In this document: positions 37,087 through 40,872 of the stretch, one piece after another | Layout of the letters: each line of letters opens with the position of its first letter | Position numbering within the stretch: the stretch's first letter is position 1 | IMG/VR virus record: IMGVR_UViG_3300030339_000011 | Coordinates: 1 to 64,000 of that record | Length of the DNA stretch: 64,000 bases | DNA from: a virus | Reading direction: 5' to 3' (one strand) | Notes under the pieces: model-generated | Seen by the model: only the letters and a program-made list of their open reading frames with translations | What the model was told of the DNA's origin: nothing | The model's database searches: none | Made by a program: the position numbers and the translations under genes

Positions 37087-38970
37087 TTATTCATTAGCAT
37101 TTACAATTGTGTTCCTGTCGTATGCTAATTTTTGTTGTCCTGATGAATCTACATATAATTCTTTTGTGTAAGATTGATAAACATGAGTAGATGATGAGAA
37201 ATCCAATCCACCACTAGTACTAAATGAATCAAAAATATTATTCATTCTAAAATAACTTCCAATCCTATTATTTTGAAATAGATTTCCAATACTATTATAT
37301 CCAAAATTACTACCAATAGTATTATAATTAACAAAATTTCCAATAGTATTACCATAAAAATAACTATCAATACTATCATTTCTAAAATTACTACCAATAC
37401 TATTATTTATAAAATTACTACCAATACTATTATAATAAAAATAACTTCCAATACTATTATAATAAAAATCAATACCAATACTATTATATGCAAAATTACT
37501 ACCAATACTATTAGAATTAAAATTACTACCAATACTATTATATCCAAAATTACTACCAATACTATTCATTCTAAAATTACTACCAATACTATTATAATAA
37601 AAAACACTACAAATATTATTCATTCTAAAATCACTACCAATATTATTAGAATAAAAATCACTACCAATACTATTAGCATTAAAATAACTACCGATACTAT
37701 TAGAATTAAAATAACTACCAATACTATTATAAAAAAAATCACTACCAATACTATTAGCATTAAAATAACTACCAATACTATTAGAATAAAAATAACTACC
37801 AATACTATTAGAATAAAAATTACTACCGATACTATTAGAATTAAAATTACTACCAAAAATGACATTATTTGAATTATATAATATTTCTATATTTGAATTA
37901 GGAAATTGAATAATATTAGAATATGCTGTTTCATAATTACTCCAATCACTCCACATATTATAATCAGTATATTCGGTTGAACATGATATTCTTAAATTAC
38001 CAACAGATAAATTATCAGGAAAGATACTAATATAACTTAAATTATTCCATTCAAATAACTTCCAAACTTTTTCATTGTCTTGACTTGGATCTACATTGTA
38101 TGTATTATTAGTTATACAAATATAAATATTTAATGAATCTTTATATGAAACAACACTATTTCTAGTATAGGTTATTCCTGAAATCCAACTATTAGTAACA
38201 TTTATTTGCCATCTTCTAAACTTAGCTTGTCTAAAATCAAAAGGAATATCATTATTTTGTAATGTATCTATTCTTCTATAAATATATCCCTTTGTACAAC
38301 CTGGAATCATAACTTGATCATTTTTATGATTGTAATAAATTACATCCTGAGGATATAAAGTAGAATAAGCTTCTGGTTTCAATGTATTTAATCCACTAGC
38401 TGTAACTAATAACGGTTCAATGATACCAGTAGATAAATAATCATTTGGATATTCAAAAACCTTTGTATCACTCCAATAATTAGGTGATTCATTAGTTGCT
38501 ATAAATGGAACTCCATCACTTACATAACCTACATTACTAAAATCATCATCAGAGTTTTCATCAGGATTATTAGTTTTAAATAAGTAATATATGATATATT
38601 CCTTTCCTATTTCTAAATTATTCCAATATTCAGTGTACGGTATTACATGTACTGTCTGATAATCAGTTATTAAATATGAAGAATTTATTGTTAATCCACT
38701 ATTATTTATTAATTCACTCAATTCATTATATGTAACATTAGTTACTACACTTCCAGTACTTCCTGTATTTGATGTACCATCAACTCCTGATGTACCATTT
38801 AATCCATTTACACCTGAAGTTCCAGATGCTCCAGAATTTCCGTTTCCAGTTGTTCCTGTCATTGCATAAACTTCATTAAAATTGTTATTAATTTTAATGA
38901 ATGAATCTCTTAGATTATCACCAGTGCCGTCATTAGGATATGTGCCGATATTAATTGTTTGTTTGCTCAT
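37087..38970 (-). CDS. famF fibre-like protein, 627 aa. N-terminus [21 protein letters not shown] (phage tail-fibre-like), Gly-rich GXY-like tract, conserved core domain, ~25 eight-residue NSIGSNF repeats, conserved C-terminus
   Basis: Core [89 protein letters not shown] is shared with 39034, 40934, 59773 and 61973. C-terminus [22 protein letters not shown]. Confidence 0.75.
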   Translation of the reverse strand: [627 protein letters not shown]

Positions 38971-38994
38971 TAATATTTTTATTTCTATATATTA
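38971..38994 (-). promoter_or_regulatory. Conserved fibre-gene upstream motif (TAATATATAGAAATAAAAATATTA on the gene strand)
   Basis: The same TATATATAGAAATAAAA element precedes the ATG of genes at 40872, 43333, 59773, 61973 and 63650, and the micro-ORF at 59456. A shorter form precedes 51589. Confidence 0.5.
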
Positions 38995-39033
38995 AAAAAC
39001 TCAGTTAAAATTAATTAACTGAGTTGTTTATTT

Positions 39034-40872
39034 TTATTCATTAGCATCTACAATTATCATCTTGTCATATATTAACTTCTTATTACCTGATGAATCTATG
39101 TATAATTCTTTATTGTATTGATTGTAAACATGAGTAGATGATGAAAAATCCAATCCACCACTAGTACTAAATGAATCAAAAATATTATTCATTCTAAAAT
39201 AACTTCCAATCGTATTATAATAAAACAAACTTCCAATACTATTATTTTGAAAATTAATTCCAATACTATTAGAATTAAAATTACTACCGATACTATTATT
39301 TATAAAATTACTACCAATACTATTATAATAAAAATAACTTCCAATAGAATTGTAATTGAAATAACTTCCAATATTATTATCATAAAAACCACTTTCAATA
39401 GAATTATTCTCACATGAAATTCCTATTGTGTTATTTCTAAAATAACTTACAACATTATTATTATCAAAATTCCTTCCAATGTTATTAGAAGAAAAACTAC
39501 TTACTATTATATTATTACTAAAACTACTTCCAATTGTATTATTACCAAATTCACTTCCAATAATATTATATTGACACCCTTTTCCTATGCTATTTTGATA
39601 ATATCCACTTCCAATTGTATTATTCATAAAATCCATTCCAATTGTATTATTATTAAATTCACTTCCAATAATATTATTTCGAAAATTGCTTCCAATATTA
39701 TTACCATCAAATCCACTTCCAATTGTATTACAATTGAAATCACCACCAAAAATCACACTATTTGAGTATCTAATTAAGTCCCCATATTGTGAATTAGATG
39801 AGCCTATTTTATTTGAATATGATGATAAATAATTAGTCCAATCACTCCACATATTATAATCAGTATATCCTGTTGAACACATAATTTCTACATTATTACC
39901 AATATAACAAGAATCTGGATAAATACTTATATATGATAAATTACTCCATTCAAATATCTTCCAAAAATTATCACTATCTTGAATTGGATCAATATTAGTT
40001 ACATTATCAGATAAACATATATAAATATCTGAATTTCCACATAATACTACATCATTCCTATTATAAGTAGTACTTGAAATCCAAATGTTAGTGACATCAA
40101 TCTGCCATCTTCTAAATTTTACATTCCTGAAATCAAAAGATATATCATTATCATGTAAAGTATCAACTCTTCTGTAAATATATCCTTTTGTGCATCCAGG
40201 TGTAATAATTTGATCACTCTTATGATTATAATAAATTACGTCCTGAGAATATAAAGTAGAATATGCTTCTGGTTTTAATGTATCAACACTACTTGATGTT
40301 ACTAATAAAGGTTCAATTTGTGAAGTAAACAAATAATCAGTTGAGTAATCATATACATAAGTATTATCCCAATAATTAGGATATTCATTCGTTGATACAA
40401 ATGGAACACCATCACTTAAATATCCAACATTACTAAAATCGTCAGATTCATCATCAGGATTATTGCTTTTGAATAAATGATATATAATATATTCTTTACC
40501 TATTTGTAAATTGTTCCAATATTCTGTATTAGGTATAATATGTACTGTCTGATAGTCAGTAATTAAATAAGATGAATTTGTTGTTAATCCACTATTATTT
40601 ATTAATTCACTCAATTCATTATATGTAACATTAGTTACTACACTTCCAGTACTTCCTGTATTTGATGTACCATCAACTCCTGATGTACCATTTAATCCAT
40701 TTGTTCCATTAAATCCTGATGTTCCAGATGTTCCAGAATTTCCGTTTTCTGTTGTTCCTGTCATTGCATAAACTTCATTAAAATTGTTATTAATTTTAAT
40801 GAATGAATCTCTTAGATTATCTCCAGTTCCATCATTTGGATAAGTACCGATATTAATTGTTTGTTTGCTCAT
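39034..40872 (-). CDS. famF fibre-like protein, 612 aa (same architecture as 37087..38970)
   Basis: Near-identical N-terminus [31 protein letters not shown]. More divergent repeat block. Same C-terminus. Confidence 0.75.
   Translation of the reverse strand: [612 protein letters not shown]

Follow-up and report, generated by a model that had tools for sequence, protein, structure and literature searches.

Two fibre paralogues with a T4 gp10/gp9-type N-terminal head in a low-GC DNA segment of probable huge-phage origin

The DNA analysed here, called the window below, is a stretch of 64,000 nucleotides (nt) comprising positions 1 to 64,000 of the IMG/VR virus record IMGVR_UViG_3300030339_000011. 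It encodes a group of related fibre-like proteins, two of which, termed A and B, begin with a phage-like N-terminus in place of the anchor of their sister proteins. The question raised by this locus is where this N-terminus comes from and what the proteins that carry it may be. A preliminary description, made from the sequence alone, had likened the DGTGD...KIN.NF segment of A and B to the N-terminus of phage structural proteins and had staked this on a similarity search. Searches with Pfam, PHROG, phmmer and tblastn gave clear similarity to such proteins. The two genes and their heads are located as follows.

37087-38970, minus strand: gene A, fibre paralogue of 627 amino acids (aa), intact open reading frame (ORF)
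39034-40872, minus strand: gene B, fibre paralogue of 612 aa, intact ORF
38860-38970, minus strand: residues 1-37 of A, T4 gp10/gp9-type head and putative virion-docking adaptor (PF07880, phrog_677, T4 gp10)
40762-40872, minus strand: residues 1-37 of B, head identical to that of A (PF07880, phrog_677)

The first 41 residues of A and B are identical. The Pfam family PF07880 (T4_gp9_10_N), which has a gathering cut-off of 25 bits, matched residues 3-62 of A with 29.8 bits and residues 3-52 of B with 27.7 bits, and phrog_677 ('baseplate wedge tail fiber protein connector') matched both proteins with an E value of 1.8e-9. When PDB sequences were searched with phmmer, residues 2-65 of the 602 residues of T4 gp10 were found with an E value of 9.4e-6, and gp9 proteins matched the head more weakly than gp10. 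Residues 3-37 of A were aligned without a gap to residues 2-36 of gp10 (KQNINIGNVVDDGTGDYLRKGGIKINENFDELY); 22 of the 37 residues at gp10 positions 2-38 were identical, and the motif G.....DGTGD.LR....KIN.NF.E.Y was kept between the two proteins. Both proteins have the shared segment at their very N-terminus, and both are presumably trimeric tail proteins. A tblastn search of 50,697 phage records with the head detected 938 records, with 60-69% identity over residues 1-35, and most of the matches fell in genes of the gp9/gp10 type from T4-like coliphages, cyanophages and pelagiphages. With residues 1-42 as the query, an exhaustive phmmer search of 1.84 billion representative proteins yielded 6,248 clusters at E <= 0.001. 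Judged from these alignments, the head of A and B is a homologue of the N-terminus of T4 gp10/gp9.

In T4, gp10 forms the baseplate pin together with gp7 and gp11, and the N-terminal domain of gp9 reportedly forms a triple coiled coil in the crystal structure that Kostyuchenko and colleagues determined in 1999. The N-terminal domain of gp9 binds one domain of gp7, and gp10 is homologous to gp9 over its N-terminal 200 residues (PMC3004832). From this homology we infer that the head of A and B would dock on a gp7-like wedge protein. That the docking partner is specifically a gp7-like protein is given about an even chance, by analogy with T4.

The sister genes in the window are the following.

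40934-43333, minus strand: gene C, 799 aa, anchor MLNIQLASEEWV, Fib_succ_major domain (PF09603), then the shared body (ORF list, Pfam, alignment A1)
54302-55303, minus strand: gene D, 333 aa, anchor MINIQLASEEWV on an unrelated body (alignment A1)
59773-61299, plus strand: gene E, 508 aa, anchor MINIQLASEEWV directly on the body (alignment A1)
61973-63550, plus strand: gene F, 525 aa, anchor MINIQLASEEWV directly on the body (alignment A1)
63650-64000, plus strand, running off the window: gene G, 596 aa in full, anchor MINIQLVSEEWV, long collagen-like linker and body

All five start with M(I/L)NIQL(A/V)SEEWV, and a further paralogue beyond the window, H, has a long collagen-like linker behind a MINIQL anchor. 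Within about 30 kb there are at least nine fibre-like genes, with two types of N-terminal plug. The contrast between the two kinds of N-terminus held exactly as first described, since A and B have an identical start at the coordinates listed above and C, D, E and F begin with M(I/L)NIQLASEEWV. The further claim that the N-terminus is exchanged on an otherwise shared core and C-terminus stood in part. In alignment A1, A, B, C, E and F have the body in common from about residue 75 of A up to their C-terminal ends, which supports the exchange, while D has only the anchor. The N-terminus is not the sole difference, however, because A and B also have a G-X-Y linker and an insertion of about 65 residues, C has the Fib_succ_major domain, and G and H have the long collagen-like linker. 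The body of D (about 320 residues) matched no Pfam or PHROG family and had three homologues among 5.8 billion proteins.

The anchor of the sister proteins has a much narrower distribution than the head of A and B. A degenerate DNA pattern for MxNIQLASEEWV was found in only six stretches in IMG/VR, all of them on low-GC contigs related to the window contig, where it headed fibres with the shared body, proteins with Fib_succ_major and the body, and proteins with Fib_succ_major alone. A tblastn search of INPHARED with the anchor MINIQLASEEWV gave no match even at an E value of 10. As far as these searches reach, the MxNIQLASEEWV anchor is restricted to one clade. Just past the right end of the window, at 13570-15531 of contig L087, lies a gene for a beta-helix-like protein of 653 aa that starts with MDEIIYLANQNWV, a variant of LASEEWV, and has the same 15-mer upstream as the fibre genes (see below); it is probably a further appendage protein.

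A gene for a product like glycosyltransferase family 25 (GT25; PF01755) is located at 61286-61900 on the plus strand, directly after fibre gene E and overlapping its end. The pairing of a fibre gene with a GT25-like gene recurs in related contigs (L010, L011, L096, and L097 at 5438-6070) and in the 636 kb metagenomic genome LR756504. GT25 includes collagen galactosyltransferases, and this neighbour possibly glycosylates the fibres.

Behind the head, A and B consist of the following parts.

38770-38841, minus strand: residues 44-67 of A, collagen-like linker of eight uninterrupted G-X-Y triplets (regular-expression run)
40663-40743, minus strand: residues 44-70 of B, nine G-X-Y triplets (regular-expression run)
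37855-38745, minus strand: residues 76-372 of A, conserved globular body domain (VTYxEL...FDFRxVKFRRW)
38422-38628, minus strand: residues 115-183 of A, insertion of about 65 residues in A and B that C, E and F lack (alignment A1)
38047-38187, minus strand: residues 262-308 of A, CBM5/12-like subdomain (W..TY..N.VV....IYIC....P.....W), candidate carbohydrate-binding site
37216-37836, minus strand: residues 379-585 of A, 23 nine-residue repeats NxIGxxFxx in perfect register, fibre shaft
37090-37212, minus strand: residues 587-627 of A, conserved C-terminal cap, kept in A, B, C, E and F and throughout the family

A protein identical to A was present on 13 metagenome contigs. The amino acid identity between B and A was 71% in alignment A1 and 68% by BLASTP. 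At the DNA level the first 290 nt or so at the 5' end were 90-100% identical and the remainder 60-80%; a conserved attachment end combined with a diverging distal part is the usual pattern for fibres. The Pfam family Collagen (PF01391) matched the linkers below its cut-off of 27.2 bits (A, 11.7 bits, E 0.24; B, 14.9 bits, E 0.023), and phrog_1806 ('collagen like minor tail') matched the linker of A weakly. For the body, no Pfam family and no PHROG family was found, and a search with the family profile gave no PDB sequence. Matches of the body in INPHARED were limited to gp99 of the Sphingomonas jumbo phage PAU and to LR756504, and a fold search of BFVD gave a single significant match, H9NBX6, which is probably gp99 of phage PAU. 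The insertion of A and B was also present in metagenome homologues with other heads (P0005, P0026 and P0029). Pfam CBM_5_12 weakly matched a paralogue on the stretch homologous to residues 262-286 of A, and the domain model gave CBM5/12-like and tail-fibre-like local matches.

For A, an AlphaFold2 model of the full length was calculated from 100 homologues and reached a mean predicted local distance difference test score (pLDDT) of 70. The score was about 90 in the body domain, 55-80 in the repeats (residues 379-585) and 80-88 in the cap, and fell below 50 over most of the insertion (residues 129-167). The repeats, which have periods of 9 and 18, were modelled as a beta-solenoid, and the model resembles tailspikes and beta-helix proteins. 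The body of A and B is accordingly predicted to be elongated and beta-helical, as is found in receptor-binding fibres and tailspikes. Pentapeptide-repeat proteins were considered as a class for the shaft and rejected, as the period is 9 and not 5 and no Pfam pentapeptide family matched; with these proteins, A shares the fold class alone. Alternatively, the repeats of a trimer could be intertwined into a triple beta-helix. Some ORFs that lie inside the fibre and leucine-rich repeat (LRR) genes in another frame or on the opposite strand, at 37620-37865 (minus), 34351-34806 (plus) and 23819-24259 (minus), were dismissed as frame artefacts of the repeats, an example being the Ile/Leu/Val-rich ORF of 81 aa inside A.

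The exchange of modules that the preliminary description had proposed became apparent on a much larger scale in the homologues. The 120 best homologues of A have the body in common and at least ten unrelated N-termini, including the gp10-type head with collagen, MxNIQLASEEWV, the KISQLP type and others. Three of these heads were identified by Pfam, namely Mtd_N (Bordetella phage tropism determinant), BppL_N (lactococcal phage receptor-binding protein) and Phage_fiber_rpt. Conversely, in 49 long proteins with the same head the bodies assigned by Pfam were BNR sialidase-like, GDSL lipase, pectate-lyase-like, collagen and glycine-rich, and many others were unannotated. A head followed by exchangeable, varied bodies is the architecture of receptor-binding fibres and tailspikes. 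These comparisons are strong evidence that the body is a receptor-binding module and that the heads are lineage-specific adaptors, as far as sequence comparison can tell. A and B are probably receptor-binding fibres of a phage with an N-terminal adaptor of the gp10/gp9 type.

The low GC (guanine plus cytosine) content of the window, about 23%, and several of its gene families at first suggested a giant virus. In this explanation, the window stems from a giant virus of eukaryotes or from an intracellular bacterium of low GC content, and A and B are capsid fibrils or adhesins that picked up a phage-like peptide. The mimivirus-like traits on which it rests are, besides the GC content, large paralogous families of LRR and ankyrin proteins, a homologue of the eukaryotic major vault protein (MVP), collagen-like fibres beside a GT25-like glycosyltransferase, and fibre-family members on contigs of up to 711 kb. 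The MVP-like gene (7965-10424, minus strand; 819 aa) matches MVP_shoulder with 97 bits as well as Vault_3 and SPFH/Band 7. In the phage collection, however, its product matched only genes of the curated 'uncultured phage' genomes LR756500, LR756501 and LR756503 (462 kb and 735 kb), with 50-53% identity over 97-99% of its length, and the neighbourhood of the gene in LR756500 has a GC content of 24% and LRR genes too, like the window. The genes of the window are small, lie on the same strand and are packed in the manner of operons, with spacers of 2-3 nt or overlapping stop and start codons. Further window ORFs matched PHROG families, the left flank had a T4_Y16D match and a weak gp32 match, relatives are present in IMG/VR, the contigs of up to 711 kb with fibre-family members suit a huge phage as well, and the body family occurs behind the heads of lactococcal and Bordetella phage receptor-binding proteins. 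No hallmark of nucleocytoplasmic large DNA viruses was seen, and the giant-virus origin was given up on account of the gene packing, the huge-phage matches and the PHROG matches; it is now regarded as extremely improbable. The tRNA and Rfam scans of the window gave no match.

Taken at sequence level, the window is almost certainly part of a huge bacteriophage genome. The best reading is that the source phage is related to the Mahaphage genomes of 462-735 kb, a placement suggested indirectly by the MVP-like gene and by the pairing of fibre and GT25-like genes; in LR756504 a distant homologue of the body is followed by a GT25-like gene, just as E is followed by 61286-61900. Al-Shayeb et al. 2020 (PMC7162821) placed the 735 kb genome in the Mahaphage clade, with Bacteroidetes as the predicted host. 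In Lak phages, which are part of this clade, genes for a tail sheath and for baseplate wedge subunits are present, and these suggest a myovirus morphotype (PMC8346664). The preliminary description had tied the region to a phage-like particle or a contractile-injection system. The phage part of this agrees with the huge-phage matches of the MVP-like gene, the PHROG matches and the IMG/VR relatives, and nothing points to a bacterial contractile-injection system in place of a phage.

Several observations weigh against A and B being fibres with a gp10-type plug. The baseplate and sheath genes that the preliminary description had suggested looking for did not turn up: no baseplate (including gp7-like), sheath, tube, capsid or terminase gene was found in the window or its 10-kb flanks, so that the tail type of this phage is suggested by its relatives only. 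Pfam and PHROG scans of the large ORFs adjoining a related fibre in contig L015 likewise gave no structural match besides collagen and tail-fibre families on the fibre itself. The head also occurs outside the T4-like phages, in the small Nonlabens phage P12024 (35 kb). In some metagenome proteins (P0124-P0135) 2-4 internal copies of the head motif stand in tandem, about 50-100 residues apart, and are followed by a gp9-like C-terminal part; on this sequence evidence, the motif does not form a terminal plug in every protein. In the AlphaFold model, confidence is low for head and linker (pLDDT <50 at residues 1-13 and 19-72), which is to be expected for the monomer model of a trimeric segment yet lends no support. 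Finally, only about 37 residues are gp10-like. The PF07880 match is confined to profile positions 1-59 (A) or up to 49 (B) of 175; the XD1 beta-sandwich (profile positions of about 60-175) was not found in A and B, which have the G-X-Y triplets there instead, and XD2/XD3 and the C-terminal domain of gp10 and the C-terminal fibre-binding domain of gp9 were not detected either, there being no significant alignment to gp10 or gp9 past residue 65 or so.

The last point bears on orthology of A and B with gp9 or gp10, an explanation under which they are fibre connectors or wedge pins and not fibres. In Pfam and PHROG, the labels that fit them best are 'gp9/10-like' and 'baseplate wedge tail fiber protein connector', and homologous heads in cyanophages are annotated as gp9/10-like connectors. 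As only the head is shared, A and B are not gp9/gp10 orthologues: it is followed by a collagen-like linker and a beta-helical repeat body, and that body stands elsewhere behind Mtd_N and BppL_N. In addition, two diverged copies lie next to at least six more genes with the same body, a pattern characteristic of receptor-binding proteins but not of wedge components, which are single-copy. This explanation is considered very unlikely. The head might also be a generic self-association or trimer-nucleating unit, with A and B attached to the virion or to other fibres through another region, or decorating the head or neck of the virion. The tandem internal copies, which a terminal plug would not need, the presence of the motif in phages that are not T4-like, the triple coiled coil reported for the gp9 N-terminal domain and the helix predicted by the AlphaFold model at residues 18-35 of A are in favour of this. 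Nevertheless, in the great majority of the 150 best phmmer matches the motif starts at residue 1-7 whatever body lies behind it, which is the signature of a terminal attachment module, the N-terminal domain of gp9 is reported to bind gp7 (PMC3004832), and trimerisation and docking are compatible with each other. The self-association unit is thus judged unlikely, though less so than orthology.

In the account that we favour, A and B serve a huge phage as trimeric, late-expressed receptor-binding tail fibres with a gp10-type adaptor, and their paralogues use a clade-specific adaptor; taken as a whole, this account is considered quite likely to be correct. By analogy with T4, the gp10-type head would be a plug that fits into a socket of the baseplate wedge. 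The eight or nine G-X-Y triplets may zip three chains together and space the body from the baseplate. The body domain with its possible CBM5/12-like glycan site, the variable repeat shaft and the cap would then contact the host surface, and the variable shaft, the insertion and the CBM-like region may set which surface glycan is recognised. As the MxNIQLASEEWV paralogues carry a different, clade-restricted plug, they would dock at a different site, either on the virion or on another fibre. In this way, one receptor-binding body could be displayed by the phage in many variants, from attachment points of at least two kinds.

The fibre genes also have common boundaries, which were located as follows.

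38977-38991, minus strand: TATATAGAAATAAAA, promoter-like box, 6 nt before the ATG of A
40879-40893, minus strand: TATATAGAAATAAAA, before B
43341-43355: TATATAGAAATAAAA
59751-59765: TATATAGAAATAAAA
61952-61966: TATATAGAAATAAAA
63629-63643: TATATAGAAATAAAA
38998-39025, minus strand: hairpin AACTCAGTTAA-loop-TTAACTGAGTT with T-run, terminator-like, between B and A

Genes A, B, C, E, F and G each have the exact 15-mer TATATAGAAATAAAA upstream, its end lying 6-9 nt from the ATG. These are its six exact copies in the window, compared with none in 100 shuffles. In the sequence that continues beyond the window, it was found in exact form before G and before the gene of the 653-aa protein, and with one mismatch before H. 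An identical hairpin with an 11-bp stem and a T-run follows each of A, B and C, at 37051-37078 (after A), 38998-39025 and 40900-40927 (between C and B). Terminator-like sites numbered six, compared with 0.8 expected. A scan for sigma-70 promoters performed no better on the window than on shuffles (74 found, 71.6 expected).

The shared 15-mer and hairpin make each fibre gene a unit of its own with common boundaries. Such boundaries are consistent with co-regulated, probably late, expression, and they also offer homology for recombination between cassettes. A bolder proposal, which we regard as doubtful, is that the fibre genes are recombination-ready cassettes with the common hairpin and 15-mer and with interchangeable plug, linker and body. 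This arrangement would let variants of one glycan-binding nonapeptide-repeat body sit on at least two sockets, an ancient gp7-type one shared with T4 and a clade-specific one; the collagen-like or Asn/Ser-rich fibres may be glycosylation substrates of the GT25-like enzyme, the head of about 36 residues would be a universal portable docking peptide, and the proteins with tandem copies could be multi-plug hubs.

Further groups of genes were observed in the window. Dozens of small genes of unrelated families (LRR, ankyrin, and proteins of 100-130 aa) have a common N-terminus, MKYIKKFE or MK(I/V)xRFNES, and a common C-terminus, (K/R)KFN(I/L). They are located at 19000-50400 (for example 44523-48567), 23841-25035 and 56265-56831, and their junction is conserved in the DNA (AAATTTAACATATAAnnATGAAGTATATAAAG), with a spacing of 2-3 nt. 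These ends may represent a peptide signal, a recombination site, or an element that acts as a promoter or in translational coupling. At 3303-6752 on the plus strand, about 15 paralogous genes for proteins of about 75 aa (MFKVGDKVVCI...RFxLLSExRxxKLxxL..C) form a tandem array with overlapping stop and start codons. Paralogues starting with M(N/D/T)xEEL(S/T)xWFxxKFxSCYPV are scattered among the fibre genes on the minus strand (30795-32188, 52530-53898 and 58164-59356).

Compared with T4 gp10 and gp9, A and B differ past residue 40 or so, where the collagen-like linker and the repeat beta-helix body take the place of XD1, XD2/XD3 and the C-terminal domains; to judge by this comparison, A and B are fibres that have borrowed a gp10-type plug and not wedge components. 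The T4-like cyanophages and pelagiphages (S-SSM7, P-RSM6 and Pelagibacter phage Mosig) have the head of about 36 residues at residue 1 as well, in proteins labelled 'baseplate wedge tail fiber connector' or 'tail fiber', with 60-71% identity and varied bodies behind it, but the body family of A and B was not found there, and the genome of A and B is that of a huge phage with a GC content of about 23%. The phages CBA120 (TSP1-4) and G7C (gp66/gp63.1) and the jumbo phage RaK2 (gp526-534) are similar in having clustered genes for receptor-binding proteins whose N-terminal modules, some of them T4-baseplate-like, decide on the attachment and whose bodies are swapped as domains; in CBA120 and RaK2 conserved domains at the N-terminus bring about the attachment of the fibres (PMC8825819, PMC10253068). 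These systems use branching platforms of gp10 XD2/XD3-like jellyrolls together with lineage-specific anchors, whereas the extreme N-terminus of gp10/gp9 is used here and no XD domain was detected. The depolymerases in those phages are different from one another, while the bodies here are paralogues of one family. Collagen-like phage tail fibres (phrog_1806 and phrog_5073; streptococcal prophage HylP type) likewise have a short, proline-poor G-X-Y run between attachment module and body, but A and B contain only 8-9 triplets and their match to Pfam Collagen is below the cut-off.

A conserved N-terminal adaptor with an exchangeable body is an established principle, and the locus extends known biology and does not overturn it. 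Less ordinary are the setting, a huge phage that has two plug types and at least nine fibre-like genes, an undescribed but widespread body family, and the uniform boundaries of the cassettes. Huge phages (>200 kb) are known almost only from metagenomes, and to our knowledge their host recognition is essentially unstudied. A plug that can be traced to gp10/gp9 predicts a socket of the T4 type on the baseplate of such a phage. The body family is widespread and has no relative in Pfam, PHROG or PDB, yet its structure was modelled with very high confidence. The head of about 36 residues may serve as a marker by which receptor-binding proteins of uncultured phages can be found, and may help in engineering the exchange of fibres.

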